A DNA stretch of 64,000 nt from Bacilli bacterium (GCA_045597865.1 JAZLKX010000001.1:56796-120795), one strand, 5' to 3'; counted from the stretch's first letter, positions 40,193 through 60,010 are shown. The notes: generated by a model from the sequence alone, not told the origin. A program made the numbers and translations.

Positions 40193-40266
40193 GCCGGCCT
40201 CATATATAGGTAGTATGTCAGTCTCCAAAACTGTTCGACAGCGTTCGAGTCGCTGGACCGGTGCCA
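40193..40266 (+). tRNA. tRNA-Trp (CCA), atypical
   Basis: 74-nt cloverleaf: acceptor GCCGGCC/GACCGGT, D-stem ATAT/GTAT, anticodon loop CTCCAAA, T-arm CAGCG-TTCGAGT-CGCTG, G73, encoded CCA. Confidence 0.9.
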
Positions 40267-40421
40267 TTATCAAAATCTATAGACTTAAAACAAATTGAAT
40301 CTGATTCATTTGTAATGAGTTGAACAGTGGTGAGAGTCATTCTCACTTTTTATTTGCAAAGTATAAAAAAAGCAGGCGCCCCGAAACTTAATTCGTACTT
40401 AGCCTGCTTTAATATATAGTA

Positions 40422-40742
40422 CTATTTATTAATTAATTCTTCAAGATTTCTCTTTGAATACATTATTCTAAGAATAACAACTTTGCTGAACATTTCATTA
40501 ATGTTATAGAATACTAGATAATTGTCTACTAACATTTGATGAATGTGTTTCTCTTTCCATGGCGAGAAACTAACTTCTTTATGTCTTGATGGAAGAGTGC
40601 TTAAGTCATCAATAGAGTCCCTAATCTTTTCGATTTGTTTTTTGGCGTTTATTTCTTCTTTTAAATCATCCGCGATATAGTGGTGGATGCTTAAAAGATC
40701 GTCGAATGCTTCGCTAGTGTAATAAACGTCAAATACTTTCAT
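40422..40742 (-). CDS. RelE/ParE family toxin
   Basis: V.YT.EA.DDL..I..YI...L, NYLVFY, ILRIMY.KR. Confidence 0.85.
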   Translation of the reverse strand: MKVFDVYYTSEAFDDLLSIHHYIADDLKEEINAKKQIEKIRDSIDDLSTLPSRHKEVSFSPWKEKHIHQMLVDNYLVFYNINEMFSKVVILRIMYSKRNLEELINK

Positions 40743-40743
40743 T

Positions 40744-41046
40744 TTAAATACCTAATTCCTTTTTGAGTTTGCGATCAACTTGTTTGCTTGATAAGACGCG
40801 TCCTTCTTCGACATCTTGAATTCCTTTTTGAAGTTCTAAATCAAATTGTTCTTTAGACAAATTTTCAACTGCAACTGGTTTGCTTTCTGGAAACTTAATT
40901 TCAAAAGGTATTCCTTTTCTTAGTTTAATTTGAGCATAGAGCATTTGAATTAAAGCTGATGGGGTGACTCCTAATGTTGTTAAGATGTCTTCGACATCTC
41001 CCTTTAAAGTTGGATCAATCCTTGCGTATACTGCTGAGTTTGCCAT
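40744..41046 (-). CDS. RelB/DinJ family antitoxin
   Basis: MANSAVYARIDP.LK...IL..LG...GIPF; ATG 41046 after AGGAGA. Confidence 0.85.
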   Translation of the reverse strand: MANSAVYARIDPTLKGDVEDILTTLGVTPSALIQMLYAQIKLRKGIPFEIKFPESKPVAVENLSKEQFDLELQKGIQDVEEGRVLSSKQVDRKLKKELGI

Positions 41047-41125: not shown

Positions 41126-41183
41126 TTGGCTTGGAAAAAGTGTAAAATCAATCTGTAATTGGCTTGGAAAAAGTGTAAAATCA
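41126..41183. repeat. 25-bp direct repeat, 33-bp period
   Basis: TTGGCTTGGAAAAAGTGTAAAATCA at 41126-41150 and 41159-41183. Confidence 0.9.
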
Positions 41184-41246: not shown

Positions 41247-41984
41247 ATGTATGATATCTCTAATATGAAAGCTAACTACAAGTTTGCAGATACAGTATTT
41301 GAAATAGAGTCATGCTTTGACTATTTTGGTAAGTTTGCTAAAGAATATGTAGTGGATGAAGAAGCATCCATTAAGCTTTCATCAACTAAAGAACAAGTAG
41401 AAACCTGGAAAGAATCACATAGTGATTGTGAAGGTTTCTCACTTGATTATATTGAAACACTTGTTATTCATTCTTTAGTAGCTCAATCACTAGCGAAAGA
41501 AAACAAGTTCATTATTCATGGTTCATCCATATATGTAGATGATCCAAGTAATGGTTATATCTTTGTCGCTCCAAGTGGAACAGGTAAATCAACCCATGTT
41601 AGATTACTTAAGAAAATGTATGGTAATCGCATTAACTATGTTAACGACGACAAACCATTCATTTTTGCTTCTAAAGATGGCTTTGAACTCTATGGTTCAC
41701 CATGGAACGGAAAAGAACATCTTGGAAACAATCTAAAAGCCCAATTAAAGGGCGTATTTGTTGTTTCCCGTTCAAATACTAATAAAGTAAGTAAACTAAG
41801 CCCTAAAGAGGCTATAAAGCATCTTATAAAGCAATTACATATTCCTTTAGGAATAGAAGAAACAGCAAATGCTACAAATGCTTTAATTAAGTTATGTGAA
41901 TCTCTTCCAGTGTATCTACTTGAAGTTAATATGGAAGAAGATGCTGCTAAAGTAAGTTTTGACATCATGTCCAAAGGAGATTAA
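41247..41984 (+). CDS. HPr-kinase-like P-loop kinase
   Basis: IHGS...G..F.APSGTGKSTH, VNDD, GSPW.GK; start may be ATG 41265. Confidence 0.75.
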   Translation: MYDISNMKANYKFADTVFEIESCFDYFGKFAKEYVVDEEASIKLSSTKEQVETWKESHSDCEGFSLDYIETLVIHSLVAQSLAKENKFIIHGSSIYVDDPSNGYIFVAPSGTGKSTHVRLLKKMYGNRINYVNDDKPFIFASKDGFELYGSPWNGKEHLGNNLKAQLKGVFVVSRSNTNKVSKLSPKEAIKHLIKQLHIPLGIEETANATNALIKLCESLPVYLLEVNMEEDAAKVSFDIMSKGD

Positions 41985-41991
41985 TAAGACT

Positions 41992-42261
41992 ATGAGAATT
42001 AAACAAGGAATCATTGTTCAAAAGATTGAAGATGAATATGTACTTATTGACTCTGGAGTAGTAGAGCCAGCATTCCATGGCATGATCAAGTTAAATGCTA
42101 TGGGCAAAGAAATAGTGGATATTCTTTCAAAACAAGATATGTCACTTGATGAACTAGTAAGAGCATTACTTGTGAAATATGAAGCATCATATGAAGAAGT
42201 GTACACATCAGTTCAACAATTCATTATGACCTTATCTAACACACCAGTTTTGATTAAATAA
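41992..42261 (+). CDS. PqqD-family RiPP recognition element (RRE)
   Basis: ~89 aa; MRIKQG......EYVLI......F.GMI.LN..G..I...L.....ELV..L..KYE pattern; AAGGAG RBS. Confidence 0.8.
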   Translation: MRIKQGIIVQKIEDEYVLIDSGVVEPAFHGMIKLNAMGKEIVDILSKQDMSLDELVRALLVKYEASYEEVYTSVQQFIMTLSNTPVLIK

Positions 42262-42263
42262 AT

Positions 42264-43841
42264 ATGAAAAAATTAAGCATTAAAGAAGCCCTAGAAAAGA
42301 ATGGATTCATCATCTATCCTTTTGAGGGTGCTTCAATGCTTCCATTACTTGTCGAAAATGAAGACAAAGTTCACATCAAAAAAGATGAAAATTTTGAAGT
42401 GAATGATGTCGTTTTATTCGAGCCATCTAAGAACCATTTTGTGCTCCACAGAATCATCGAAATTAAGGATGATAAATACTACATTATTGGAGATAACGCT
42501 AGTAAGCTTGATGTAATCGAAAAATCAAAAATACTTGGGAAAATGGTGGGATTTTACAAGAAAACAGAATATTTCGAGTTAGACAGAAAAGAATATATTG
42601 AGTACGTAAATCAACTTTTATTCAGCAACGAATTTAACAAAAATGAGCTTCTAAAAGATCCTGAAGATTTCTTCTTTTCTCGTCAAATGAATGCTCTTTT
42701 TGAGATCATCAATTTAGAGATAAATAATGAGCTAAAAAATCCAGATAAAATTAACCAACTTTTAAGCTTCGAAAAGCATGAATTTTTCACGTTAATTAAG
42801 GAGAAAAAAGCTCTCCATTATTTAGGCCTTGCTGTGTCTAAATTTGGAGTGCATTTAACCCCTAAACTTGATAAGCTCGCAGTGAACGCTTTTGAAGAAG
42901 CAAAACTAAGATACATTAGAAGTGAAGAAGCGGTGAAGAAGGTATCTGAACTTTTCACTAGACATGGAATCAAACATGCATTCTTGAAGGGTGCTGAACT
43001 AAGAAAGTTGTATCCAGAACCATTCTACAGGATGTCTAACGATTTAGATGTCTTGGTGTCAAAGGAAGACTTCAAGACTGCTCGTAAACTAATCACTGGA
43101 GTTTTAGGAGGCAAATTCTATGCATCCACTCCACATGATGATTCTTTCATTGTAGATTCTCTTCTCATAATGATTGAGTTACATCATTCAATATCAACAG
43201 ATCTTCCAAAAGATTTGAAGTATCTTTTAGATAACACACTAGAAAACGCTAATAAGGTAGGTAAATACCAATGTGTGTTAACTAACACTGATATGATGCT
43301 TATCAATCTCTCTCATGCCGCTAAACACATAAATAATGGTGAGTTCTGGCTTAACATGCTTACAGACACATATTATTTGAATAAACTTGAATATGATAAG
43401 TCCAAAATTATGGATGCTAGACTTAACAAATTCCATCAAACATTGAATAGAATTATCTCATGTGCTGGCTCATACAATAATTTGGATGACAAAGACAAAG
43501 CATTATTAAAGTTCCTTTTTGCTAAAGGTGAAGATATTCATATGATGCTTCAAAAAGGAAAATATCATTCCAAATTTTCATATGTAATGCATCGTATATT
43601 TGTGCCATATCGTGCACTTACACCAAGACATCCGCTTCTTAAGAAAGTACCTATCTTGTTACCGTTCTATGAAATTGCAAGATGGATAGCAATGCCATTT
43701 AAACACAAGAAATGGACAAAGCACTACAAAGAGGAAATCAATGACTTCCAGAAGAAAAATTCAAAGGAAATTAATATATTAATTGAATCTGGATTAGAAG
43801 AGTATATAATTAGAGTAGATAAATCCAAAAATAGATTTTAA
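42264..43841 (+). CDS. S24/S26 peptidase fused to nucleotidyltransferase (NTP_transf_5-like)
   Basis: GASMLP (Ser), VLHRII (His), GDN; then LKGA.L..LYP...R.SNDLDVLV and IELH. Confidence 0.8.
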   Translation: MKKLSIKEALEKNGFIIYPFEGASMLPLLVENEDKVHIKKDENFEVNDVVLFEPSKNHFVLHRIIEIKDDKYYIIGDNASKLDVIEKSKILGKMVGFYKKTEYFELDRKEYIEYVNQLLFSNEFNKNELLKDPEDFFFSRQMNALFEIINLEINNELKNPDKINQLLSFEKHEFFTLIKEKKALHYLGLAVSKFGVHLTPKLDKLAVNAFEEAKLRYIRSEEAVKKVSELFTRHGIKHAFLKGAELRKLYPEPFYRMSNDLDVLVSKEDFKTARKLITGVLGGKFYASTPHDDSFIVDSLLIMIELHHSISTDLPKDLKYLLDNTLENANKVGKYQCVLTNTDMMLINLSHAAKHINNGEFWLNMLTDTYYLNKLEYDKSKIMDARLNKFHQTLNRIISCAGSYNNLDDKDKALLKFLFAKGEDIHMMLQKGKYHSKFSYVMHRIFVPYRALTPRHPLLKKVPILLPFYEIARWIAMPFKHKKWTKHYKEEINDFQKKNSKEINILIESGLEEYIIRVDKSKNRF

Positions 43842-43844
43842 TAC

Positions 43845-43880
43845 ATAAAACATCACTTACTTGTGGTGTTTTATTTTTTT
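43845..43880 (+). terminator. Intrinsic terminator
   Basis: ATAAAACATCAC/GTGGTGTTTTAT followed by a T run. Confidence 0.75.
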
Positions 43881-43942: not shown

Positions 43943-46900
43943 ATGAAAAAAAGAATACTTGCATTACTCGGATTAACCTCAATTGCACTAGCTGCTAGTG
44001 TAATTTCTTTAAATAGCAGCAAAACAGCTCCAACAGAAGTTGAAGAAGTTTTCGCTGCAGATGATCCAAATACCAACTGGGGTGGTATGAAGGCCATTCC
44101 TTTCGGGGATAGATACGAAAATACTTGGACTGGTGAACCAAAATATTCAACCCAAAGTCCACTTCAATTCTCAACAATGGACATTGGAGATGTTTGGAAA
44201 AACTACCAAGGTTTTGAATCTGGAGACAAACCAGTTAAAGTTGCAGTTATTGACTCTGGTATTGATATCTATCACGAAGACTTTTTAATACCAGAAGCAA
44301 AAAATGTAAGTATCACTGCTAGTAACGTTAAAGACTATTCAATCTTAGATCCAAATAGCTGCTATATTCATGATACTTCAAATGGTTACTATAGTAGCAG
44401 TGTTAAAACTGAAGTTGGTATTGATAAAGCTTACGACACTGATACATATGATTCCAATTATAAAGAATATTATTCTCACGGTACTGCATCAGCTGCCTGT
44501 ATTGGCGCTGCAATAAACGGTGCTGGTGGTTTAGGTATAGCTCCAAAATGTGAACTATTAATCATTAGAATGGATTTCTACTTCACATCTTTAGATACAG
44601 CTATTAGATATGCTGCAGATCATGGTGCTGATGTTATTAATATGTCTTTGGGAGCATATGCTGAAACATTTACTGATGGTTATGGTGTTGAACAATCAGG
44701 TTCTAGCTCAGTCGCAAGCGCATTAACAAGCGCAATCAACTATGCTTTAAACAAGGATTGTGTTGTTGTTGCAGCTGCCGGAAACGAAAAAACAAATCAT
44801 AAATCTTATCCTGCATGTAATGCTGGTGTTATTGGTGTTGGAGCTTTAGCTTCAAAATCAAAAACAGGTGCTGCAGATTTTAGTAACTACAACTTAGATT
44901 CAGATACATCATCCACAAACAATAACGTTGACGTTATGGCTCCAGGCTATGTCTATACAGCAAACATGGATGCTAGTAATGGTCCAAAAACCGGTTCTAA
45001 CTTAAAAGATTCTTCATATCAAAATACTCAAGGTACATCATTTGCATCTCCATTAACTGCAGGCGCAATTGCTTTAGCAAGATCTAAATACCCTGAGATG
45101 ACACACACCCAAATCGAACAAAGATTGTTTGATACTTGTTCAGATATTGGTAATACTGGATGGGATAAGAAGTTTGGTTATGGAAGAGTTAATATTTCCA
45201 ACTTAATTGGTGTTACCTATGAAGTTGAAGACATCACATTAAATAAAACATCAATTAATTTATATAACAATTCAACCACAACAACATTAGTTGCTGATGT
45301 ACTTCCAGAAACAGCTACAAATAGACTTATTCACTGGTCTTCATCAAATACTAGTGTAGTTACAGTTCCAGCAACATCAAATGCTGGAGCAGAAATTACT
45401 GTTACACCTATAGGTGTTGGCACTGCTACAATTACTGCACGTAGTGATTTTGATAATACAATTTTAAAACAATGTTCAGTAACTGTTAGCTCATACGTAT
45501 CTTCTGAATTTACTCTTAGCGCACCTAAGACAACAATTATGGAAGGAGAGACAGTTCAAACATCTGTCGCATTCACTCACGAAAATCCAACATCAACTGA
45601 AATCTTATACGATACTTCTAATAGTAGTGTTGCCACAGTAAGCGACAGCGGTTTAGTTACTGGTGTTGGTGCAGGTACTGCAACAATTACAGCTGTTTCT
45701 GCTGATGATATTCAAGAAATCACAATTACTGTTACATTAGACCCAACAAAGGATTCAGCCACTATTGAGTTTGGTGATTGGCCATCTGGCGGTACAAGTG
45801 GTAGTGGTTCAGCGCTTAGTGTAACTAAGTCTATCTTTAGTATGTCTCTTGATAAGGGATATAACTCAGGAAGCGAAATTAGAAACTATGCTGGCGGAAA
45901 AGTTACTGTTTCAATAACTAACGGAACTATCCTTTCATTCTCTATTACAGCACTTTCTGGAAATACTGGTGGCACATTAACAATGCAATCGGGTGGTGGT
46001 AGTGTTTCATTAAATGGCACTACTATCAAATACCAAAGTGGAGCAACACCATCTTCAAGTGTATGTTTTAAGAATGGATCACAATTACGTTTCACAAATA
46101 CAACAATTGTTTATAAATCAAATATTGATCCAACCGTTCAATATACAGTTACATTTAACGGAAATGGTGGTTCAAATCCAGATTCTCAAACAGTTGCTTC
46201 AGGAACAATAATCACTCTTCCTTCATCAACAAGAACTGACTATACATTCTTAGGATGGTCAACTTCATCTTCAGCTACATCTGCAACCTATAACGGTGGT
46301 GCATCATATACAGTTGAAAGTAATATTACTTTATATGCTGTATGGAGTAGCTCCGGTGGTGGTGGAGGCGGTGGTGAAATTACAGATTTAGAAACCACAA
46401 CATACGGTTTTACCGATAAAAACTGGTCCGATTCAACCTCTTCCTGGAAATCAAATTCTGCTGGATTTGGCTATGATGCTAGTAGAGGAATTCAAAGAAC
46501 AGCTGGTACTTGCGAAGGCGAAACGAAAAATTCTATTTCAAATATTACAAAAATATCCATTAAAGCTGTAACTACAGGTAGCGGTGTAGGCACTTATTCA
46601 ATTTATGTTGGCGCTACACTAGTTGGTTCTTTACCACTTAGTAAAGATACAACTTTAAAAGACTATGAAGTTTATAGTGGAACACCAATTACTGGTAAAG
46701 TAAAAATTAACATCAATTGTACAACTAACTCGCTTTATATTAAATCGGCAACCATTACTACTGGAACTAGTGGTGGTGGCGGAGGAGGAGATACTCCTGC
46801 TACAAATTACACTGTTTCATTCAACGCTAATGGTGGCAGTGGAAATATGTCTAGTGCAACTACAACTGGTTCAAGTTACATCGTTCCAGCATGTACATTT

Positions 46901-49543
46901 ACTAGAACTGACTACACATTTAGCAAATGGGCATTAAATTCCGCTAGCGGTACACAATATTCAGTTGGTAGCACAATTACAGGTATCACCGGAAACATTA
47001 CTCTATACGCAGTATGGAGAAGTGGCTCATCAGGTGGCGTACAAATGGATCCTCATTACTATGATTCAATCACTAGCGATTTAACAGGAACAGATTTGTT
47101 ATCAGCATTAAGAACTCTTAACTTACAAAAGAGAACTAGTACAGTTGGCTATTCTAGTATGGGAACAAGCCCATCTGGACAATTTAAGTATACAGATTAT
47201 GACCCAACAACTGTTCAATACAATAGTGATGGTCAACCATATGGAACTAAAATCCTAAGTTTCTACTCAGGAAAATCTTGTGATAGTTTCAATCGTGAAC
47301 ACGTTTGGCCAAATTCAAGAGGTGGTGGCTCTGTCGATTCAGATATTTATATGCCAAGACCTACAATTCAAGCAGAAAACTCTAATAGAGGTAACTCTTC
47401 TTATGTTGAAGGTATGTGCCATAGTTCTGATGGTTGGGATCCAGTTACAGCCTTTGATTCAACCTTGGGAACATATTCAAATATTCGTGGTGAATGTGCT
47501 CGTATTATTTTTTACTGTACAACTGCAAACGGTTCTTTAAGTATTAAAGAAGGCGCAGACTTAAGTTATAACAATAGTATTGGTAACCTTTCTGACTTAC
47601 TTAAATGGAATTTACAATATCCAGTTAATGACCGTGAAATCAGAAGACAAAGCGGTGGTCAATATTTGCAAGGTAACCGTAATGCCTTCGTTGATGATCC
47701 AAGCTATGCTTGTAAAATCTGGGGTAATACAAACGCTGCAACAAGACAAGTTTGTGGTATCACAGATAAGAATTTAACATCAATCACTTTAGGTGGAAAC
47801 TACAAGACTCAATTTGAAGTTGGTGATAACTTCTCCTTTGGAGGAACTGTTACTGCTAATTATTCAAATTCAAGTCCTGCAGATGTAACATCAAAAGCTA
47901 CATATAGTGGTTATGATTTATCTACAGCAGGTAATCAAACAGTTACAGTTTCATATACTGAAAACAATGTTACAAAAAATGCAACATACAACATTACAGT
48001 TACCGATTCTACTCCAAAAGTAACTGGAATATCTTTAGATAATTACAGTTTACAATTAGATGTAATTGGAACAGTTACAGGAACTTTGACTGCAACCGTT
48101 ACTGGAGATGCAGGAGCAGACAAAACTGTTTCTTGGTCTTCTAGTGATACATCTGTTGCAACAGTAAGTGCTACAACAGGAGATTCAATCACCGTTACAG
48201 GTCATAAAGTTGGAACTGCAACAATTACTGCAAGTGCAGGAGAACATAGTATAACGTGCGCGGTATCAGTTATAGATAGCACGCCTGTGGTTCATAGTGT
48301 AACGATTACTAGTATGCCTGAAAAACTGGATGTAACTTCTAATCCAACAGGCGAAATAACACTTTCTATTGACGCTGATTCAGGTGCTGATGCAAGTGTT
48401 GTATGGGATTCATCTAACAAATCAGTTGCTACAGTTGCACCAATTGTAAAATCTGCTAAACGAAGCACTGGAGGAATTGAAGTATCTGCAACAATTACAG
48501 CAGTAGGCGCAGGAACTACAATAATTTCAGCGGAAGCTGGTGGCAAGAGTGCATCATATGAATTAACAATTGAAGATTCAACTCCACATGCTAATGGAGT
48601 AACTTTAGATCAGACTTCAGTGACATTAAATATTGGAGAAAATGTAACATTAACTCCTACTGTTTCTCCAAGTGACGCAATTGATAAGCAAGTTACTTGG
48701 GAGTCTTCAACAACTAGCGTTGCAACAGTTGATTCAAGTGGTGTTGTAAGAGCAGTATCTGTTGGATCAACAACAATTACAGTTACAACAGTTGATGGTG
48801 GTCATACAGCTACATGTAGTGTTACTGTTAGATCTTCTTCGGCGACCGTAGTTAGATATGAGTTATCTCCAGAAAATTCATCTGTACCATATATGACTGG
48901 TAAAGGATCAACAACAGTTAATTTCACCTTGTACGCTATTTATAGCGATAAAACTAGAAGCCCTGTAGAGGATTCAATTTCAAAGTCTATTACTACAAGC
49001 TCACTTGGTGAAAAGTCAGTTAACTATACATACAATGGAACTAAGTACACATCGAGTGTTAAGGTAACAAATAATGGAGCGTCAATTGGAGCCGATTCAT
49101 CATTTAATGCTACACCTGCTCAGCAAGCTGAGGCATGGGCAAATTACTTTATTAACATGACTCGTACTGAAGATACATGTCTTGCAAGTAGTGATGAAGA
49201 TAAATTAGCGGGTTTACAGGCCGTTTGGGGCGAGTTAAGCGCTGAGTATGGCTACATGATAGCAAACTCAAAAACAGCCTTCTGTTCTAGCTCTGCCAGT
49301 GCAAAGATAAAAGAGGCATTACAACACTATCAATATATCATCTCTAAATTTAATAAAAATGGCGTTGAACTTACTGACTTTGTTGTAGATGGTAATAACC
49401 AAAAACCAGCATCATCAAGTAGATCACTTTTGAACACAATGTTTAGCTTCGAAAATAGTGGATTTATTGTTGCAATTTTATCCATTATTGGAGTAGCTTC
49501 AATAGCCGTATTTGTGGTCTACAAAAGACGAAAAACATATTAA
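43943..49543 (+). CDS. Surface-anchored S8 subtilase + Ig-like/InlB-B repeats + endonuclease I domain
   Basis: Signal peptide; VAVIDSG, HGT, AAAGN, GTSFASP triad; Big_2-type and InlB-B repeats; NREHVWP, RGECARIIFY, QGNRNAFVD nuclease motifs; C-terminal TM + KRRK. Confidence 0.85.
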   Translation: MKKRILALLGLTSIALAASVISLNSSKTAPTEVEEVFAADDPNTNWGGMKAIPFGDRYENTWTGEPKYSTQSPLQFSTMDIGDVWKNYQGFESGDKPVKVAVIDSGIDIYHEDFLIPEAKNVSITASNVKDYSILDPNSCYIHDTSNGYYSSSVKTEVGIDKAYDTDTYDSNYKEYYSHGTASAACIGAAINGAGGLGIAPKCELLIIRMDFYFTSLDTAIRYAADHGADVINMSLGAYAETFTDGYGVEQSGSSSVASALTSAINYALNKDCVVVAAAGNEKTNHKSYPACNAGVIGVGALASKSKTGAADFSNYNLDSDTSSTNNNVDVMAPGYVYTANMDASNGPKTGSNLKDSSYQNTQGTSFASPLTAGAIALARSKYPEMTHTQIEQRLFDTCSDIGNTGWDKKFGYGRVNISNLIGVTYEVEDITLNKTSINLYNNSTTTTLVADVLPETATNRLIHWSSSNTSVVTVPATSNAGAEITVTPIGVGTATITARSDFDNTILKQCSVTVSSYVSSEFTLSAPKTTIMEGETVQTSVAFTHENPTSTEILYDTSNSSVATVSDSGLVTGVGAGTATITAVSADDIQEITITVTLDPTKDSATIEFGDWPSGGTSGSGSALSVTKSIFSMSLDKGYNSGSEIRNYAGGKVTVSITNGTILSFSITALSGNTGGTLTMQSGGGSVSLNGTTIKYQSGATPSSSVCFKNGSQLRFTNTTIVYKSNIDPTVQYTVTFNGNGGSNPDSQTVASGTIITLPSSTRTDYTFLGWSTSSSATSATYNGGASYTVESNITLYAVWSSSGGGGGGGEITDLETTTYGFTDKNWSDSTSSWKSNSAGFGYDASRGIQRTAGTCEGETKNSISNITKISIKAVTTGSGVGTYSIYVGATLVGSLPLSKDTTLKDYEVYSGTPITGKVKININCTTNSLYIKSATITTGTSGGGGGGDTPATNYTVSFNANGGSGNMSSATTTGSSYIVPACTFTRTDYTFSKWALNSASGTQYSVGSTITGITGNITLYAVWRSGSSGGVQMDPHYYDSITSDLTGTDLLSALRTLNLQKRTSTVGYSSMGTSPSGQFKYTDYDPTTVQYNSDGQPYGTKILSFYSGKSCDSFNREHVWPNSRGGGSVDSDIYMPRPTIQAENSNRGNSSYVEGMCHSSDGWDPVTAFDSTLGTYSNIRGECARIIFYCTTANGSLSIKEGADLSYNNSIGNLSDLLKWNLQYPVNDREIRRQSGGQYLQGNRNAFVDDPSYACKIWGNTNAATRQVCGITDKNLTSITLGGNYKTQFEVGDNFSFGGTVTANYSNSSPADVTSKATYSGYDLSTAGNQTVTVSYTENNVTKNATYNITVTDSTPKVTGISLDNYSLQLDVIGTVTGTLTATVTGDAGADKTVSWSSSDTSVATVSATTGDSITVTGHKVGTATITASAGEHSITCAVSVIDSTPVVHSVTITSMPEKLDVTSNPTGEITLSIDADSGADASVVWDSSNKSVATVAPIVKSAKRSTGGIEVSATITAVGAGTTIISAEAGGKSASYELTIEDSTPHANGVTLDQTSVTLNIGENVTLTPTVSPSDAIDKQVTWESSTTSVATVDSSGVVRAVSVGSTTITVTTVDGGHTATCSVTVRSSSATVVRYELSPENSSVPYMTGKGSTTVNFTLYAIYSDKTRSPVEDSISKSITTSSLGEKSVNYTYNGTKYTSSVKVTNNGASIGADSSFNATPAQQAEAWANYFINMTRTEDTCLASSDEDKLAGLQAVWGELSAEYGYMIANSKTAFCSSSASAKIKEALQHYQYIISKFNKNGVELTDFVVDGNNQKPASSSRSLLNTMFSFENSGFIVAILSIIGVASIAVFVVYKRRKTY

Positions 49544-49557
49544 AAATATATGAAACG

Positions 49558-49582
49558 AAACACCACTTAGTGGTGTTTTTGT
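49558..49582 (+). terminator. Intrinsic terminator
   Basis: AAACACCAC-TTA-GTGGTGTTT followed by Ts. Confidence 0.8.
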
Positions 49583-49657: not shown

Positions 49658-50113
49658 ATGCAAAGATTGCTTGAATTAGGCACCGAAATTAGACATAGAA
49701 GAATTGCATATAACCTTTCTATGGATGATGTTGCAAAAAAAGCAGGCATTACACGTGCAACACTAACTGAAATAGAAAAGGGAAATGAAAAATGTTCTAT
49801 TGGAAGTTACTTTAGGGTAATGGATATTTTAGACATTGATGTTTCTTTCATAAAAACATATTCCATACCAAAAAGAAAAAGAGTTACAAGAAGAAATACA
49901 GCATATCAAAAGAAGATTAATCAGTTTGTTATTATCTGTGTTGAAATGTATGCAAAACACATCAATAAACCATCTAACGAAGTATATTTCTTGTTATTAA
50001 CAAGTGGTTTATTAAATATACTTCGTGATGATTATGAAGATATGCATGGCTTTGGATTCGAATATATCAATGATTACACCGACAAATATTTGAAGGCGAG
50101 GAACTTGCTATGA
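49658..50113 (+). CDS. XRE HTH fused to DUF3791-like domain
   Basis: IRHRR...VAKKAGITRATL..IEKG; C-terminal F...CVE.YA....Y..L...G....L...YE.MH. Confidence 0.7.
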   Translation: MQRLLELGTEIRHRRIAYNLSMDDVAKKAGITRATLTEIEKGNEKCSIGSYFRVMDILDIDVSFIKTYSIPKRKRVTRRNTAYQKKINQFVIICVEMYAKHINKPSNEVYFLLLTSGLLNILRDDYEDMHGFGFEYINDYTDKYLKARNLL

Positions 50114-50601
50114 TTTTGTATCATGGATCTACAGTTGTGGTTAAGAACCCAAAAATATTAAGAGACGATAAAGGTCGCGATTTTGGTTATGCTTTCTATT
50201 TAACTCCTATAGAAGAACAAGCTATTAGTATGGCTAAAAGAAAAAAAGAAATGGATAAAATAAGCGGTATTAATTCAAAATCAATTGTTAATATTTATGA
50301 ATGGGATGAAAACATTGAAAATTTAAAATATGAGATTTTTAAGGAAACAAATGAAGAATGGGTTGACCTTATCGTTTCTTGTAGAAAAAAACCAAACTTT
50401 AATCATGGTTTTGATATTGTTGAAGGAAAAATAGCTGATGATAAGGTTGGAGTCTCTGTAACTCTTTATATTAATGGATTTATTGATAAGCCCGAGTTAA
50501 TTAAAAAACTTAAATATCAAAAGATTAATAATCAAATTGCATTTTGTAGTGATAAATCACTAAAAGGTATTAAATTTATAAAATCATACGAGGTTAAATA
50601 A
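50110..50601 (+). CDS. DUF3990 family protein
   Basis: MILYHGS, DFG..FYLT..QA, DIVEG.IADD, QIAF. Confidence 0.8.
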   Translation: MILYHGSTVVVKNPKILRDDKGRDFGYAFYLTPIEEQAISMAKRKKEMDKISGINSKSIVNIYEWDENIENLKYEIFKETNEEWVDLIVSCRKKPNFNHGFDIVEGKIADDKVGVSVTLYINGFIDKPELIKKLKYQKINNQIAFCSDKSLKGIKFIKSYEVK

Positions 50602-51072: not shown

Positions 51073-54000
51073 ATGAAGACTAAAAAGAATTTCTTGAAAA
51101 AGCTATCAGCAGTAGCCTTAGGTTTTGTTATGACCTTAGGAGTGGGTGCTGCAGGGTATGCAGCGAGCGCTAGCGAAACAAGCGCTGGTACTGCAACTGT
51201 TATATTAGAAATCAGCGGTAAAAAGATTGATTCTAGTACATCTTACGTTTCAAATGAAAAAACAGAAACCGTAACGGGTTATAGCATTACTTGGAATAAC
51301 TTAAATCCTGACAGTGGCCAAATTCGTGGAAATCAAAATAGCCAAACAAACATGCTATCTGGTGCAAACTTTTATGCTTTCAACACAAAGGCCCTTCCAG
51401 GAACAATTACTAGCATTAGTATTGATACTGCATTAGTTGCTGCGAATACTTATGCTTCGGTTGGTTCTTCTAAATTTACTTCTTTAAGTACGTCTGCAAC
51501 AAAAGCAACAGTTTCAGGAACTACTACAAGTTGGTCATTTAGTGGTTCGAATAATACATATTTTGCTATCGGTTTGCAAAAAGGGGGAACTAGTGGAACG
51601 GTAAAGGGTAATAAAATTACGATTACATATTCAACTGGTGATACAAAAACTTTAAGTTCTATCGCAATCTCTTCTTCTAGCCATAGAAATTTTACAGTTG
51701 GAGATACATTTGTTGGTGAATCCGTTACCGCAACATATTCTGATTCTACAACTGCACCAGTTACCGCAACATATTCTGGTTATGATATGAGTAGTGCTGG
51801 AACACAAACAGTTACAGCATCTTACACAGAAGGTGGAGTTACAAAAACAGCAACTTATACTATTGCCGTTACTTCTGGTGGTGGTGGGGATGAAGGCGAC
51901 CAACTTATTATTACTAGTGGAACTTTAGGCCTCTCTGGAGCCACTAGTTCTTCTGGCTATAAAAATTCAGAGACAGTTTATGGTATTTATACTTTTAATC
52001 AAGGTAACTCAAATAAAGTGTATAACACGTCAACAGGTGGTTCAAATTCAACAAATGCATTCAAAAAGGATAAAGATGATGGTGCAATTTTTATTGGAAA
52101 GAGTGGAGCATATATTTATAATAATGGAGCTTTTGATAATGATATAGGCAAGATAGAAATTTATGCAAATGCTGGCGCGTCAGCAAACGTTTCAGTTTCT
52201 ATTGATGTTGGCACTTCAAAATTAAACACCTCTATTTCTTCAAATCATGATTACTCAAACACTTTATCAACACTAAATAGCGTTTATACTGCTGTTGAAA
52301 ATTTAGCTGCTGGATATAAATACTTTAGATTCCAAGTAAATAATGCTTATAACGCACAAGTTCAGTTTAGAATCACGTTTAGGGCCGCAGCTACATTAAC
52401 AGGAATGGAAATTAAAACCAATCCAACTAAAGTAGAATACAAAACAGGCGATACATTCAATCCAGCTGGTTTAGTAGTCAATGAAATTTATTCAGACAAT
52501 AGTAAAGTCGAGGTTCCTTATTCAGGTAATGAATCCAAATTTACATTTAGTCCATCATTAAGTACTGAGTTAACTACATCTCATAATAAAGTTACAGTTG
52601 GATATAAACATGATTCTAGTTCGACAGAATATACAGACGACGTAACCATTAGCGTTACTCAAGCAAAGGTATTAACAAGCATTAGCGTTGATCAATCTTC
52701 TCAAAATTATAAAATTGGAGATGCTTTCCAAACTAGAACAGTAACTGCAAATTATGGTGATGGAACTTCTGCTTCAGTTACTGCTACATTCTCAGGGTAT
52801 AACATGGATGTTGCTGGAGATTACACAGTTACAGTGGCATATTCTGAAGGCGGAGTTGATTTGAGCAAAACTTATTCAATTAGCGTTAAGACAATTTCAT
52901 CGTATACTGTTACAGGAAGTGTTAATGCAACTATTGGAGAAGCTTGGAATTATTCCAATTTAACTATTCAAGCTGTTTGGGAATCACCATATGCAGCAGA
53001 AACTCTAACAAATAATTTTGATATTACATTTAGTCCTACAGTTGCATCAAAAGGATTAACTTCTGTTAGTGCAACAATAACATATAGAACAGTAACAAAA
53101 AATGTTTCAAATATTTCAGCAGTTGTTGATTCGGTTATTAATGATAAACTCACATCTGCTTCATTTGGGACACCATCTGCATATCCAAAAGATAGCAGCG
53201 GTAATTTTTATGCAATTTCAACTAGTGGCAATCAAACCTTCTCTTCTGGTGCTGTATATGGCGGTAATTTAACAACAAAATCAAATACAACATCAACTAT
53301 TCAAGTAAGAGCACAAGATCAATCTGGTCTTTGGGTAACTACATCTGGAGGTGTAGCTAAATCTGTTAAGTTGACTTGGGATTCTGGTACTACAGCAGGT
53401 AGAAGTGTAGAAATTTATGGCAAGAATTCAGCCTATGCTTTAGGTGATATTTATAGTTCAGATTCAAGTGTTTTAGGTGAGAAAGTTGCTACAATCTCAA
53501 AAGATGATAATAGTGAAACTACTTTAAGCAAATCATTTGAATATATTGCAATTAAACCAGCTGGTGGTGCTCTTTACTTAACTGATATTACAGTTAAATG
53601 GGGCGAGGCAGATTCATTAACAGCATTTGCAATTTCTGGTCAAAAAGTTAATTTCGTTGCTGGTGGTACATTTAGTTTAGGAAGCGAATATACTGCAACC
53701 GCAACATATTCAGTCAGTGGTCAAAAGACAGTTACATCAGGCTTTACATATAAGATGAATGGTACTGCTATTACCACTTCTACAGTACTCACTCATAACG
53801 ATGATGGAAAATCAATTGTTGTTACATACACAAATCCAGATAATGATAATCAAACTGCTTCAGCAACAGCATATCAAATTAACGTTGCATACAAAGCACC
53901 AACCAGTGTTTCTATTACTGAAGGTGATTCATTGAACATTTCTGTAAATCAAGACCACACATTTAGTGCAACTGTATCAGATCAATATGCACAATCTGGT

Positions 54001-57000
54001 GTTACTTGGAGCTTAGCAAATGCTAGTGCTGATGTGGAAGCCATAATTGACGAAGATACCGGTTATTTCTTATCAGGAGATGTAGCTGGTTCAGTTGATG
54101 TTGTTGCTACATCAATTGGCACACCAGCAAAAACTGCTTCATGTCACGTTACAATTAGTGCAAATCCTATAGTTACTGTTGAGCCAACTGAAGTTAGTGG
54201 GATTGCAAATGTTTCAGAAGATGAATTAGTTTGCGCTACAGCAAGCAATTTTGGTTCTATTACTCAATATCTTTGGGAATCAGATGATTCTTCAATTGCA
54301 AGCGTAACAATGGATGAAGATGATAATGATTACGCAACCATATCATTCTTACATAATGGTTCTTGTACAGTCACTGTTACAGTTTCTGGAACAGATTTAG
54401 CTGGTAATGAAGCTTCTGAATCTGCTGAAATCGCAGTTACAGTAACAAGACAATTATCTTCCATTAATGTTTCATTAGTAGATAGTACAAAAACTTATAC
54501 AGAAAATGTTGCTGTTCCATTAAGCGACATTGTAATTGAAAAAGTTTATTCTGACAACACAACTGTTCCAAGCGTTACATCTGGATTCAGCTTTGTTAGC
54601 GGTAAAGATAGACCAACTATCGAAGATCCAACTGTCACAATTACTTACACCGAGGATGGTGTTACTAGAACTGGTTCAGTAAATCTTACTGTTGGATACG
54701 CACAACTATCTAGTGTTTCAAAAGATGGTACAACATATCAAACAGAATTCAACCATGGAGATTCATTTACAGTTGGTTCTAACGGCAAAATGATTGCAAA
54801 CTATAAAAATAGTGCATTCCCAGTTGAAACTCTTATCAATGCTGGTGAACTTCAGACAAGTTTAAGAGGTACTTTAACCATTAAATTAGAAGAACAAGAT
54901 GGCACCTTAGTGAGAGAAATTTCCTATGGAGATGCATTAACACGTGCTGATAATGGCAAATATGTACATTTTGTTTACAGTTATCATGGTTCAAATGAAG
55001 CACCAAATAGATATCAAATTACAGTAAATGCCCCTGTCCTAGATGTAAAATATATGGGACAAGAGGAAGCTGGATACACATTGGTGACTGATGCATCAAC
55101 ATTAGAAGCTGGTGATGTTATTGTATTTGGTGTTCCATCAAAAGGAGTAACTGCAACATATATTTCAAACAGCAAATTACAAAAAGTTGCTTCTACATTC
55201 TCAGGTGATTATTCAAAAATTACTGAACTTGGAGAAGGCACATATTTATATACACTAGGTGGTGATTCAACAACAGGTTGGACGTTTGCTGACGTTGAAG
55301 AAGATCTAATTGGCGCATCTTCGGTTAAGAATTTTGCATACAATCAAAATACAACTTGGACTATTTCAATAACTGATGGTGCAGCAACCATTTACAATAC
55401 CAACACAGATCTCGGACGTTTTGTTTATAATGCTAGTTCTAATTATTTTGGCCCTTACACATCTGATACTTCTACATCAATGTTATTGCCAAGTATTTAT
55501 AAGTATTCCATAGGAGGAGACGTTGAAAAAACTGCACATCCATCTTCAGCCTTATATGATGTATTTGCAGCAACACAAGATTTATCAACTTCTAACTGGG
55601 ATACATACGGCGGTTATTACGCAAGTTTTATGCAAGATACAACATCAGAAGATTACACTGTATTAAATAAGGGTATTAGAGATGCAAACGGAAATATTGC
55701 CGAAAAATTCTTAGCAACATATGATTCAGTTTTAGGATCAAATCCATCCTTAACAAACTTCCTTGAAAGACCGATTATAGGCGGAACATATACAATTAGT
55801 TATTTTGAAGCTGATGGAACACCTATTACAGACGCTTCATTAGTAACATCTTATAAAAATGGTGTAGGCGCAACGCTTGTGGATGCACAAGATAAAGAAT
55901 TATATTCATTCGCTGGTTGGTACGATAATGCTCAATTAAAAGGTTCACAAGTTACAACTATTTCAGATAGTGCAACTGGTAATAAGAGCTTCTATGCAAA
56001 GTGGAATTTCGCTCCAGAATCTGGATTAAATGAAGTTAGCGAAAACTTCGGTATGTCATTCAAATATAACTATAATGACACTCCAGTAATAACAACTAGA
56101 GCAACAAGTGACGCAGCAGAATATGAATTAGTCACTGATGCAAGTACATTAAAAGAAGGAGATAAGATTCTGATTGTTGGTAGCAAAGATAATTCATATT
56201 ATGCCTTAGCTCCTTATGCATCTGGAAACAACTGTAAACGCAATGACATATCAGCACCAGTTAGTAATATTATTACAGCAGATGTTGCTTACTTAACATT
56301 AGGTGGTTCGGCTGGAAATTGGACATTATTTGATGGTACTTACTACTTGTATGCGGCTGGTGGAACAGGAAGCAATAACTATCTTAAAGGTGCTTCTAAC
56401 GCAGATGCAACTAATGCACAATGGAGTATTGCTATAGATGGTGGAAACGCAACAATCAAAACTGCAGATAGCACAGTTGCAAGACATACTATTATGCACA
56501 ATTCAGGTTCAACTTGTTTCTCTTGTTATGCTAGCGGCCAAGGCGCAGTACAAATCTATAAGATGAAAGACAGCACTCCATCACCATATACAGATGTCAC
56601 ATTTAAATTAAATGTTAAACCAAGCGGAATATTCGACTTTGGAGATAACCTCTTATACGGAGAAGATTATGGTATTGTTGTTATGTACAATGATGGTAAA
56701 GAAGATAGAGTACGTTACTTCAGCTTTGTTAAAGATGCTGATGGCAAGAATTGGATTTATGAAGAAGGTGAAGATCCAATAGAATTCACTCTAAAATCCA
56801 ATGGCCAATTTACACTAAATTTAGGTGATGTTATTAACAAGCCGAGTAGGGCATTCACAGAGTTTACTGTAGCAGCCTACGTTATGGATGGTGATACGCC
56901 AATCTTGTCTGAGAACACGGCTACATGTTCAATAGCTGGATTAATTGAAGAATACTACAATAATCCTGCAACTCGTACACAACAAGTCATTGACTTGTAT

Positions 57001-57027
57001 AACATCTTCTTCCCAGAAGGTAAATAA
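51073..57027 (+). CDS. Large secreted protein with bacterial Ig-like and InlB-B repeats
   Basis: Signal peptide; repeated VTA.YSD...SGYDMS.AG.QTVT.SY.E units, F.GWY repeat, duplicated LVTDASTL..GD domain; GGGAGG RBS. Confidence 0.85.
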   Translation: MKTKKNFLKKLSAVALGFVMTLGVGAAGYAASASETSAGTATVILEISGKKIDSSTSYVSNEKTETVTGYSITWNNLNPDSGQIRGNQNSQTNMLSGANFYAFNTKALPGTITSISIDTALVAANTYASVGSSKFTSLSTSATKATVSGTTTSWSFSGSNNTYFAIGLQKGGTSGTVKGNKITITYSTGDTKTLSSIAISSSSHRNFTVGDTFVGESVTATYSDSTTAPVTATYSGYDMSSAGTQTVTASYTEGGVTKTATYTIAVTSGGGGDEGDQLIITSGTLGLSGATSSSGYKNSETVYGIYTFNQGNSNKVYNTSTGGSNSTNAFKKDKDDGAIFIGKSGAYIYNNGAFDNDIGKIEIYANAGASANVSVSIDVGTSKLNTSISSNHDYSNTLSTLNSVYTAVENLAAGYKYFRFQVNNAYNAQVQFRITFRAAATLTGMEIKTNPTKVEYKTGDTFNPAGLVVNEIYSDNSKVEVPYSGNESKFTFSPSLSTELTTSHNKVTVGYKHDSSSTEYTDDVTISVTQAKVLTSISVDQSSQNYKIGDAFQTRTVTANYGDGTSASVTATFSGYNMDVAGDYTVTVAYSEGGVDLSKTYSISVKTISSYTVTGSVNATIGEAWNYSNLTIQAVWESPYAAETLTNNFDITFSPTVASKGLTSVSATITYRTVTKNVSNISAVVDSVINDKLTSASFGTPSAYPKDSSGNFYAISTSGNQTFSSGAVYGGNLTTKSNTTSTIQVRAQDQSGLWVTTSGGVAKSVKLTWDSGTTAGRSVEIYGKNSAYALGDIYSSDSSVLGEKVATISKDDNSETTLSKSFEYIAIKPAGGALYLTDITVKWGEADSLTAFAISGQKVNFVAGGTFSLGSEYTATATYSVSGQKTVTSGFTYKMNGTAITTSTVLTHNDDGKSIVVTYTNPDNDNQTASATAYQINVAYKAPTSVSITEGDSLNISVNQDHTFSATVSDQYAQSGVTWSLANASADVEAIIDEDTGYFLSGDVAGSVDVVATSIGTPAKTASCHVTISANPIVTVEPTEVSGIANVSEDELVCATASNFGSITQYLWESDDSSIASVTMDEDDNDYATISFLHNGSCTVTVTVSGTDLAGNEASESAEIAVTVTRQLSSINVSLVDSTKTYTENVAVPLSDIVIEKVYSDNTTVPSVTSGFSFVSGKDRPTIEDPTVTITYTEDGVTRTGSVNLTVGYAQLSSVSKDGTTYQTEFNHGDSFTVGSNGKMIANYKNSAFPVETLINAGELQTSLRGTLTIKLEEQDGTLVREISYGDALTRADNGKYVHFVYSYHGSNEAPNRYQITVNAPVLDVKYMGQEEAGYTLVTDASTLEAGDVIVFGVPSKGVTATYISNSKLQKVASTFSGDYSKITELGEGTYLYTLGGDSTTGWTFADVEEDLIGASSVKNFAYNQNTTWTISITDGAATIYNTNTDLGRFVYNASSNYFGPYTSDTSTSMLLPSIYKYSIGGDVEKTAHPSSALYDVFAATQDLSTSNWDTYGGYYASFMQDTTSEDYTVLNKGIRDANGNIAEKFLATYDSVLGSNPSLTNFLERPIIGGTYTISYFEADGTPITDASLVTSYKNGVGATLVDAQDKELYSFAGWYDNAQLKGSQVTTISDSATGNKSFYAKWNFAPESGLNEVSENFGMSFKYNYNDTPVITTRATSDAAEYELVTDASTLKEGDKILIVGSKDNSYYALAPYASGNNCKRNDISAPVSNIITADVAYLTLGGSAGNWTLFDGTYYLYAAGGTGSNNYLKGASNADATNAQWSIAIDGGNATIKTADSTVARHTIMHNSGSTCFSCYASGQGAVQIYKMKDSTPSPYTDVTFKLNVKPSGIFDFGDNLLYGEDYGIVVMYNDGKEDRVRYFSFVKDADGKNWIYEEGEDPIEFTLKSNGQFTLNLGDVINKPSRAFTEFTVAAYVMDGDTPILSENTATCSIAGLIEEYYNNPATRTQQVIDLYNIFFPEGK

Positions 57028-57047
57028 AACATTAAGGAGGTTAAATT

Positions 57048-57185
57048 ATGAAAAAAGAAAGTTATCAAATTCCATTAATTGAAGTCATTAATGTTTTAAA
57101 TGACGTTATTTGTACATCTGGTGTAGAACCTACAAACCCATTCGATCCATTCGATGATGATGACGATGGTACAGATGTATTCTAA
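57048..57185 (+). CDS. Unannotated 45-aa peptide with lasso/RRE-type leader (putative RiPP precursor)
   Basis: AAGGAGG RBS; MKKESYQIPLIEVINVLNDVICTSGVEPTNPFDPFDDDDDGTDVF. Confidence 0.8.
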   Translation: MKKESYQIPLIEVINVLNDVICTSGVEPTNPFDPFDDDDDGTDVF

Positions 57186-57325
57186 TAATCTCATATAATG
57201 GGTCTCCACGTTAAAATGGGGTTCCATGGGGTTTTGCCCCAAAAACATATAATTAGAGACATACGGGCGTAACTGTTATAATATGGTTACGCCTTTAATT
57301 ATTATATCTATATAGGAGTTTAAAA

Positions 57326-58462: not shown

Positions 58463-60010
58463 TTAATTTTCAATATTTGGTAAAGAAACAGTTTTTTTGT
58501 GTTCTTTTAAAAGCCCAAGAAGTTGTTTTTCATTTAGGGTTGCAACAAAATAACATGTTTCTCGTTTTAAGAAATTTTTAATCATAATCTTATATTTTTC
58601 ATTTTTTATCTTAATCTTTTGTTCCATTAATTTTTTACTAAATTTTATTGATTTTATTGAAAGTAAAAAATCTTTTATATTTGCTTCATTTACTTCTTCT
58701 TGATTAATAAGATTATTTAAATAAAGTGAAAAATTATAAGCAATCGAGTCTACTGATAATTTATTTATAGTTCCATAATCAATTAAAAATTGATGGAAAT
58801 TATTGGAATAATATTTACACAAAACTTTTATTGCAATCGAACCATAAATATTTGAATCATCAATATATTTCAATTTATGAATATCATTGTAAATAGATTT
58901 CTTTATACTAGCGAAAATATCAAGATCTTCTTTGTTTTTAAAAGTAAAAATTTTTTCGCAATTCTCTTTTAATATAATTCCTGAATTTAAAATTGTTGTA
59001 TCTACATAAAGTGAGTTTATTAGATTTGTTTTAATAACATCTAATTTATTTGATATCTTTATAATCTTTTTGCCTAATTCATCATTATCTTTTGCAAGTT
59101 CTATACATTCAATTATTGATTTTAACAAAAAATTGTTAGGATTTATTGTTTGCAAAATACGAATATTTTTGGTTACGCTGCTTACAAGAATTGAATTACT
59201 AATATTTTTTTCATATTTAACAATATATTTTAGAAAATCGAAAAAATCGCTTATAAAGCAACTAATTTCATCGGCCCAATATAAGACGGTTCCTTCCACT
59301 GTTAGCGGTGAAGAGTAATAAAGATATTGACTGATATGGAAGTCTTTATTTGCTAGATTTTGTTTATAACAATTTTTCTTTAAATTTTTGCAATAACAAA
59401 TATTTGTTTGATTTTGTATATTTATGCATTTTTTCACGCATTTAAGTTCATTATATTTATTAATAAAATCATTAAAAAATGGCGAATTATTAAATCCGCA
59501 TTTTCTTAGTATAAAATTAATTTTAGCAACATTATTTTCTGTAAAAACTAGGAAGTTATAGTCTTTTGTAAAAACTGATGAATGTTTTAAAATGGAGTCA
59601 ATTAAAACCATTTGATCATCTTGAAGGATATATCTTTCGGAAATTAATTTAATTGAGTTAATATTGTGTTTAAAAATTCCAGGAAAAGTTTCTGAATAAT
59701 GAACCCCATCATCTGATAAAAACATTGCATTAATTGCATTTTCTCCAGCGTGACCAAATGGTGTATGTCCAATATCATGCAATAAAGCAGATAATTTCAA
59801 TCTATCAATACAAACAAAATCTTCTAAGTGTTTTAATTTTACAATTTCAAAACACGTTTTTTCGACCGCCTTAGTGTGATCAATTCTATTTGTAAACTCA
59901 TCTTTTTCTTCTTTATTTCTAATCATTTGAGTTTTATTTTTTAGACCCTGAAAGAGATTAGATTTAATGACGTTTTCTCTCGTTAAAAATAGAGGATTTA
60001 ATTTTTTCAT
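58463..60010 (-). CDS. HD-domain dNTP triphosphohydrolase with Cys-rich insertion, copy 2
   Basis: F..L..KTQ, NRIDHT, HDIGHTPFGHAGE, KHN, KH, VEG...ADEIS. Confidence 0.85.
   Translation of the reverse strand: MKKLNPLFLTRENVIKSNLFQGLKNKTQMIRNKEEKDEFTNRIDHTKAVEKTCFEIVKLKHLEDFVCIDRLKLSALLHDIGHTPFGHAGENAINAMFLSDDGVHYSETFPGIFKHNINSIKLISERYILQDDQMVLIDSILKHSSVFTKDYNFLVFTENNVAKINFILRKCGFNNSPFFNDFINKYNELKCVKKCINIQNQTNICYCKNLKKNCYKQNLANKDFHISQYLYYSSPLTVEGTVLYWADEISCFISDFFDFLKYIVKYEKNISNSILVSSVTKNIRILQTINPNNFLLKSIIECIELAKDNDELGKKIIKISNKLDVIKTNLINSLYVDTTILNSGIILKENCEKIFTFKNKEDLDIFASIKKSIYNDIHKLKYIDDSNIYGSIAIKVLCKYYSNNFHQFLIDYGTINKLSVDSIAYNFSLYLNNLINQEEVNEANIKDFLLSIKSIKFSKKLMEQKIKIKNEKYKIMIKNFLKRETCYFVATLNEKQLLGLLKEHKKTVSLPNIEN

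Follow-up and report, generated by a model that had tools for sequence, protein, structure and literature searches.

Organisation of the operon at 41247-43841

A 64,000-nucleotide stretch from a Bacilli bacterium (GCA_045597865.1, JAZLKX010000001.1:56796-120795), here called the window, carries at positions 41247-43841 a compact operon whose products resemble enzymes that act on peptides that are ribosomally synthesised and then modified after translation (RiPPs). The window has a G+C content of 30% and represents about half of a contig of ~121 kb. The operon consists of three open reading frames (ORFs) on the same strand, at 41247-41984, 41992-42261, and 42264-43841, with intergenic gaps of 7 and 2 nt, and the following features were assigned to it:

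41247..41984, + strand: peptide Ser kinase of the HprK/PEPCK fold, LppK-like, 245 aa (invariant motifs, AlphaFold 2 (AF2) model, Foldseek)
41992..42261, + strand: stand-alone RiPP recognition element (RRE) of the PqqD family, LppB-like, 89 aa from ATG (Pfam, alignments, profile matches)
42264..42623, + strand: S26/SpI-like leader peptidase domain, aa 1-120, with S24, H62, and D77 (hidden Markov model (HMM), alignments)
42687..43841, + strand: NTP_transf_5 domain of the same 525-aa ORF, PsmN/LppN-like, with K242-G243 and D260-x-D262 (Pfam, alignments)
43845..43874, + strand: terminator-like hairpin closing the operon (consensus scan only)

The kinase has no match in a Pfam scan, and a sequence search of the PDB with its profile returned P-loop matches only. 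Its assignment derives from residues that are invariant in 40 aligned sequences (H91, the P-loop A-x-S-G-x-G-K-S-T-H, and N133-D-D135) and from an AF2 model (pLDDT 94.7) that Foldseek matches to PEP carboxykinase (E 1.5e-7) and to HprK/P structures (E 2.3e-6). The RRE scores 39.7 bits with PF05402 (cut-off 23.4), and its profile matches LppB (9x8z_B, E 2.2e-4) and TbiB1 (E 2.3e-9). Residue N35, which aligns with the Asn of 9x8z_B that fixes the leader Pro (LppB N33), is kept in 66/66 aligned RREs. It should be noted that the ORF lister starts this frame at TTG 41959, whereas the 89 aa given here are counted from ATG.

The third ORF joins two catalytic domains. Its S26 part lies below the NCBIfam cut-offs (best TIGR02228, E 6.8e-4), reaches E 9.4e-32 with an HMM made from related loci, and is devoid of a transmembrane (TM) segment; S24, H62, and D77 are present in 60/60 S26 sequences. 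The second part matches NTP_transf_5 with 96 bits over aa 170-383 (cut-off 31.2), and D260/D262 are found in 39 of 40 relatives. The homologues indicate that the fusion is inherited and not an artefact, because 13/20 of them, 30-97% identical, span 90-100% of the ORF, and 13/13 keep the motifs around S, H, and D. It also occurs in two Erysipelotrichaceae loci, and in another locus S26 is joined to an ABC transporter. A Pfam scan of the 51 window ORFs found neither Asn_synthase nor Transglut_core3.

Thus, the main points of an initial annotation of this DNA, which had described an HPr-type kinase, an RRE awaiting HMM confirmation, and an S26 peptidase-nucleotidyltransferase (NTase) fusion in a three-gene operon, with no lasso cyclase and no B2 protease in the window, are borne out. 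The terminator that it placed behind the operon is plausible, not proven: the predicted hairpin has 12 pairs, of which just 3 are G-C, with T's after it, and 14 such sites occur in 18 kb against 7.2 +/- 3.1 in shuffled sequence.

Several details of the surroundings may be recorded here. The hairpin sequence at 43845-43874 is nearly identical to that at 49557-49579, which follows the next gene. The operon is flanked by tRNA-Trp and a RelB/ParE pair (40193-41046), and between the divergent relB and kinase starts lies an exact 25-nt direct repeat with 33-nt spacing (41126-41183), possibly an operator or a recent duplication.

The precursor peptide and related pathways

Relatives of the system were collected by a genome scan with the kinase alignment, and the best 80 of at least 600 stretches were kept. 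These loci, which come mostly from gut and rumen Clostridia, encode kinases with 30-39% identity, and contig truncation affects all co-occurrence counts among them. On the same strand and within 8 kb of the kinase, an RRE gene is present in 61/80 loci, S26 in 54/80, NTase in 38/80, an ABC transporter in 33/80, and all five in 25/80; the kinase stands alone in 12/80. In the 46 loci with 4 kb available on both sides, the corresponding numbers are 35 (RRE), 33 (S26), 21 (NTase), and 21 (ABC).

A candidate substrate is encoded in the window ~20 nt after the stop codon of a gene for a 1984-aa secreted protein:

57048..57185, + strand: 45-aa precursor peptide with a Y6-x-x-P9 leader motif, D19, S24, and an acidic Pro/Phe core (HMM, sequence)
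57265..57294, + strand: terminator-like hairpin behind the peptide gene (terminator scan)

The peptide gene has a strong ribosome-binding site (AGGAGG, 57035-57040), and its product ends in Phe. No peptide family in NCBIfam or Pfam matches this product, nor did NCBIfam match any of five precursors tested from the related loci. In those loci, an iterated HMM gathered 40 short ORFs from 31/80 loci into a family with the consensus Y-x-x-[PL]-x-M-E-V-I-x-F-E-x-E-D-[VI]-I-T-[TA]-S followed by a short acidic tail. The Tyr is conserved in 35/40 members, the Asp in 38/40, and the Ser in 38/40; the cores, mostly 8-17 aa counted from this Ser, are short, acidic, and variable. With an HMM built without it, the 57048 peptide ranks first among 1577 short ORFs of the window (domain E 0.024), and its score of 16.5 compares with a best of 12.7 among 5000 shuffles. 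These results support its placement as a distant member of a conserved precursor family and support this peptide, which the initial annotation had already singled out, as the substrate.

The operon closely recalls the lppAKBSDN cluster of Paenibacillus alginolyticus, which directs the synthesis of linear polyphosphorylated peptides (LPPs; Popov et al., Nat Commun 2026, PMC13381572). In that pathway, up to four phosphates are added to core Ser3, and LppS (S29/H68/D93) cleaves after FET in an RRE-dependent manner, while deletion of lppN caused no change and the NTP_transf_5 step was not observed (PMC13381572). The window operon likewise encodes an HprK-like kinase, a stand-alone RRE with the conserved Asn, and an NTP_transf_5 protein, and has no cyclase. 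Its peptidase is also of the Ser-His-Asp SpI/S26 type, with S24/H62/D77 paired with S29/H68/D93 of LppS by motif and order, not by alignment. Both precursors have a YxxP leader and a conserved Ser near the start of the core, and the Tyr-Ser distance of 18 in the window equals that in LPP. In many related loci, moreover, the gene order kinase-RRE-S26-ABC-NTase is that of lppKBSDN.

Nonetheless, the two systems differ in several respects. The LPP precursor follows YxxPxVLxHQxIxFETxxS (Px9Fx[T/A]), whereas the family described here follows YxxPxMEVIxFExEDVIT[T/A]S; its Phe lies seven residues after the Pro, FET is missing from the window peptide, and the family cores are shorter and acidic. In the window, S26 is fused to the NTase, Ser73 of the RRE replaces D70 of LppB, and the MsbA-like transporter of the LPP cluster has no counterpart within the 64 kb (an ABC gene is found in 33/80 relatives). 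Genes for secreted proteins and for stalk proteins, rather than lasso or capsule genes, are the neighbours in this group. Three LPP features are lacking in the window system (the precursor motif, a transporter within the cluster, and the Asp of the RRE), and it is therefore filed as a sister variant of LPP and not as a member. The accessible part of the table in PMC13381572 has three rows for clostridial SpI proteins, which fall outside cluster 1 (clusters 4, 9, and 20) with the precursor given as 'ND', and a term search of its main text found no match for 'clostrid', 'surface', or 'lipoprotein'.

With good confidence, the window operon can be expected to carry out LPP-type processing. In such a scheme, the RRE would bind the YxxP leader of the 57048 peptide, as shown for LppB; the kinase would add one or more phosphates to the near-invariant Ser, S24, as shown for LppK; and the S26 domain would remove the leader, most likely after C22 or T23 (the predicted site), as shown for LppS. 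Each of these three steps is probable by comparison with the LPP experiments. The initial annotation had taken the cassette for a distinct RRE-dependent pathway; leader cleavage, phosphorylation, and the lack of a cyclase agree with those experiments, but the claim of novelty falls, since the pathway has already been described (PMC13381572). Indeed, the cassette itself is known, and what is new here is the precursor family, the fused variant, and the neighbourhood link to surface proteins.

The next step is evenly balanced: the fused NTP_transf_5 domain may cap the phosphate, as suggested by PsmN, leading more likely to a sugar than to a lasting nucleoside monophosphate (NMP). According to the accessible part of PMC6993621, PsmN, with an essential DxD (D134/D136), is needed for the addition of one or two hexoses (+162 Da) to the phosphate. 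The +NMP product proposed in the initial annotation is thus less well supported, lppN deletion having had no effect, and, given that PsmN is needed for hexose on the phosphate, the likelihood of +hexose is no lower than that of +NMP. Export of the product would fall to an MsbA-like ABC transporter encoded elsewhere.

Kinases of the HprK type acting on Ser and stand-alone RREs are also shared with the paeninodin and pseudomycoidin systems (PadeK/PsmK and PsmN), as is the NTP_transf_5 DxD (PsmN D134/D136, window D260/D262), as far as the accessible part of PMC6993621 goes. The window differs from them in lacking a macrolactam cyclase and a B2 cysteine protease; moreover, their Ser is C-terminal and their leader has WxxP, whereas here the Ser lies near the start of the core and the leader has YxxP. 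Lasso precursors follow certain rules: a YxxP leader, Thr two residues before Gly, and Asp nine residues into the core. The 57048 peptide, taken alone, fits them (YxxP, Thr at -2, Gly1, Asp9), and only 64 kb of the genome is visible, so that a split lasso system, with cyclase and B2 protease encoded elsewhere and this peptide as the precursor, deserves mention. It is extremely unlikely, however: an Asn-synthase-like sequence occurs in only 3/80 loci (that of L054 being of the glutamine-amidotransferase type), no B2-like motif was found in 5969 ORFs of the window and the loci (motif and phmmer level), the family cores are mostly too short to thread, and an intact S26 protein is an LPP hallmark.

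Some related loci deviate from the common arrangement. For example, in L055 (Synergistaceae), five precursor genes stand in tandem ahead of the kinase (685-1336), and L022 (Kandleria; 6498-6848) encodes a 117-aa precursor with the family leader and a long core. In the variant cassettes L045, L074, and L080, the peptide gene abuts radical SAM genes, possibly for further tailoring; in L074 (6611-8698), the core has three Cys, and the NTase is fused to a TupA-like ATP-grasp domain. Plasmid pNP243 of Butyrivibrio fibrisolvens (L082; 10621-10794) carries a kinase-peptide-RRE-S26 cassette with a different Cys/Tyr/Pro-rich YxxP precursor, with two NTases and pssD/pssE as neighbours.

Surface proteins, stalk proteins, and a possible docking role

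The gene upstream of the peptide gene encodes a protein with the following features:

51073..57027, + strand: secreted multi-domain protein of 1984 aa, proposed to be the peptide's client (C-terminal TM segment and LPxTG both absent)
56584..57024, + strand: C-terminal domain of this protein, an Ig-like beta-sandwich with two helices, unnamed family (scan, model)

In a full scan, the final 147 aa of the protein matched 40 proteins, which form a family, and in 36 of them the match lies within 30 aa of the C-terminus; a word-based search with the domain returned only itself and one near copy. The model of the window domain has pLDDT 76-93 over most of the domain, with residues 1-170 of the model at low confidence. 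One fold search with it found generic Ig V-set folds only (best Z 6.9, root mean square deviation 3.4, 96 residues aligned), and a second found nothing at E <= 0.001. A 'MiiA motif' match in the domain scan was dismissed (12.6 bits, cut-off 24; only unrelated uses among the literature matches listed). By eye, a probable first strand is apparently split off by a 170-aa inserted domain (~aa 1660-1835), where the model is of low confidence; the Ig matches begin at chain residue 13, which leaves room for strand complementation by a partner.

Secreted proteins with a C-terminal domain of their own also precede the peptide genes in Clostridia. This clostridial domain is a tandem of two ~120-aa units (hhalign 98%); neither it nor the window domain scores above cut-off in Pfam or NCBIfam, and the clostridial domain also has no PDB match. 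A peptide gene follows within 67 nt after 16/19 ORFs that carry it, compared with 2/163 other ORFs of at least 500 aa, and among the three exceptions is an ORF whose end lies 100 nt from the edge of its locus. The N-terminal parts of the domain-bearing proteins are diverse (LRR, subtilase, PKD, transglutaminase, Ig), and none of the 19 has a C-terminal TM segment or LPxTG. The link to adjacent surface proteins suggested in the initial annotation is thus strongly supported by the gene neighbourhoods of the relatives.

A second neighbour is a short protein, here called a stalk. Seventeen loci encode stalks of 137-236 aa, which combine a signal of the hydrophobic or lipoprotein type at the N-terminus (lipobox-like in 8) with a linker rich in Ser, Thr, Glu, and Pro and an [IV]ELPFVP-like motif at the membrane-distal end; this hand list was obtained after removal of 6/23 candidates that have no motif, and an automatic filter gives 15 loci. 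In 15 of the 17, the stalk gene lies within 163 nt of the kinase ORF start, on its upstream side. The stalk of L032 is reversed, with the motif right behind the signal peptide and a C-terminal TM segment, and the motif is therefore better regarded as a membrane-distal epitope than as a sorting signal of the C-terminus. In 9 loci, variants counted, the genes are arranged in the order large protein, peptide, stalk, kinase. Both features occur together in 10 loci, which do not cluster on a quick kinase tree (9 changes). Peptide cores match the stalk motif of their own locus better than in permuted pairs, with p 2.2e-4 for 12 loci and p 2.3e-4 for the 10 loci that are left without near-copies. Since the stalks are exported in Sec fashion, an extracellular partner of the motif is to be expected, and the obvious candidates for it would be the anchorless proteins that are co-transcribed.

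Taken together, we favour, with somewhat better than even confidence, a linear phosphopeptide pathway of the LPP kind in which the genes for the precursor and for a secreted surface protein are co-transcribed and the peptide may serve as a docking tag. The docking step for the anchorless surface proteins, taken by itself, is held more tentatively, at a little less than even, and comes from genomics: the short core would be a ligand of the C-terminal domain of the co-transcribed secreted protein, while the modified Ser end would tie the peptide to the envelope. On the wall side, the peptide would thus correspond to the membrane stalk proteins, which have the same motif in relatives. Generalised, and more doubtful still, this becomes a RiPP-based mode of surface display in gut Bacillota, in which C-terminal domains may bind ELPFVP-type motifs on disordered, membrane-tethered stalks and on leader-cleaved phospho-Ser peptides that are exported by ABC transporters and linked to the envelope via the NTase-modified phosphate. 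The window would be a divergent example of this, in which the domain exists in a separate version and the peptidase and transferase are fused.

Cohesin-dockerin pairs are a means of non-covalent surface display. They offer an analogy only: in the logic proposed here, a portable C-terminal module on many secreted proteins would likewise meet an envelope-fixed partner, but that partner would be a short linear motif, presented by a membrane stalk as well as by a modified peptide of the RiPP type. Pfam and NCBIfam scans show no sequence relation of the C-terminal domains to cohesin-dockerin or other display modules.

A number of findings weigh against this interpretation. The 64-kb window contains no ABC gene and no stalk gene, and the evidence from neighbourhoods derives entirely from relatives with kinases of just 30-39% identity. 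When all 31992 ORFs are searched, the 57048 peptide reaches only E 0.49, although it is the sole further match beyond the family of 40; its leader is one residue shorter than the family leader; its gene is 13 kb from the operon; and Ser73 of the RRE occupies the position of a Tyr-binding Asp that is kept in 55/66 aligned RREs. The window C-terminal domain is not matched by the HMM of the clostridial domain, and hhalign gives 29% for the pair, about the same as for an unrelated RRE control (24%); a like pattern of strands and helices and a YSV-like motif are seen by eye beside these negative results. No clostridial C-terminal domain appears in the available sequence of 16/31 peptide loci. As to the motif, the cores of L005 and L065 match their own stalks poorly, [EDVI][LMT]P occurs in only 13/41 cores (shuffle mean 2.6, maximum 8; motif chosen post hoc), the window core (P-F-x-P-F) resembles stalk motifs weakly, with 132/5000 shuffles scoring as high, and local duplication of the stalk gene end could be an alternative source of the same-locus match.

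Some of these observations, namely the 13-kb distance, the Asp-to-Ser change in the RRE, and the missing transporter, together with the long branch of the window kinase in the quick tree, would also be expected if the operon acted on other precursors elsewhere or were decaying, the 57048 peptide then not being a substrate. This is highly improbable, as the catalytic motifs are all kept in the 13 fused homologues, kinase-to-peptide distances of 7-9 kb are also found in L018, L052, and L077, and the short ORFs of the window include no better candidate.

The same LPP-type chemistry might instead yield a free secreted phosphopeptide, such as a signal, a metal-binding peptide, or a decoy by which surface proteins are released, with no tether to the envelope. 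The short, acidic, and variable cores would suit such a product, some loci encode several peptides with no domain-bearing protein in view (five in L055, two in L039), and the same-locus match would be explained just as well by a soluble peptide that competes with the stalk motif. The LPP final product and role, too, are stated to be unknown, with no product found in the native host (PMC13381572). However, a role apart from surface proteins would leave both the 16/19 versus 2/163 association and the motif on Sec-exported stalks unexplained, and this alternative is considered rather unlikely.

It has also been speculated that LPPs of Bacilli participate in polysaccharide or biofilm assembly, and LPP and paeninodin clusters are often located in capsule loci and co-expressed with them (PMC13381572). 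A peptide acting as a primer, carrier, or decoration in this process would agree with the large capsule-type locus of the window (90-33416), with the position of the Butyrivibrio plasmid cassette beside pssD/pssE, and with the hexosylation to which PsmN leads (accessible part of PMC6993621). Nonetheless, 7.8 kb of unrelated genes and a tRNA separate the capsule-type locus, which ends at 33416, from the operon, and polysaccharide gene clusters recur in just 3-4/80 related loci each (a sugar-transferase cluster in 4/80). The polysaccharide link, which the initial annotation had offered beside that to surface proteins, thus loses ground and is distinctly improbable.

If the docking-tag interpretation is correct, it would give a function to a widespread phosphopeptide pathway and would explain how many proteins of the LRR, protease, and Ig-repeat types in gut and rumen Clostridia are retained on the cell without sortase, SLH, or dockerin anchors; a RiPP would then act neither as an antibiotic nor as a signal but as a structural tether. 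For the open role of LPPs, the neighbourhoods point to the C-terminal domain as a candidate partner and also supply a candidate for the ligand motif. Should docking fail, the precursor family would still be new, and the operon would still be a fused variant of a pathway already known. A literature search, with most subscription papers outside its reach, returned no paper describing the precursor motif or the stalk motif, or such an anchoring role. In their accessible parts, PMC7533575 notes kinase/RRE/NTase-type genes beside rumen lasso clusters only, the passages of bioRxiv 2023.03.08.531785 concern daptides, and PMC12710340 and PMC7470986 gave no match in a term search.

Other genes of the window

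The gene that follows the operon (43943-49543) encodes a 1866-aa surface protein with a subtilase domain, Ig repeats, and an Endonuclease I domain. It was considered as a part of the system and rejected, because it has its own C-terminal TM anchor and its own hairpin. An HTH-DUF3791/DUF3990 pair lies at 49658-50601, between two surface genes.

Within the capsule-type locus, two similar gene pairs (9320-13058 and 17599-20065) each consist of a gene for a 415-aa protein with no Pfam match and, behind it, a gene with a weak Wzy_C (O-antigen ligase-like) match. The same locus contains, at 21849-28400, an HD-domain gene, a DNA methylase, a HATPase, a receiver-like ORF, and an HNH nuclease. A second HD/dGTPase-like gene, which scores below the anti-phage dGTPase cut-off, is located at 58463-60010; together with the genes at 21849-28400, it possibly represents defence inserts. 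Finally, a radical SAM/SPASM and methyltransferase gene pair is found at 60907-62803, near an ISL3 fragment.

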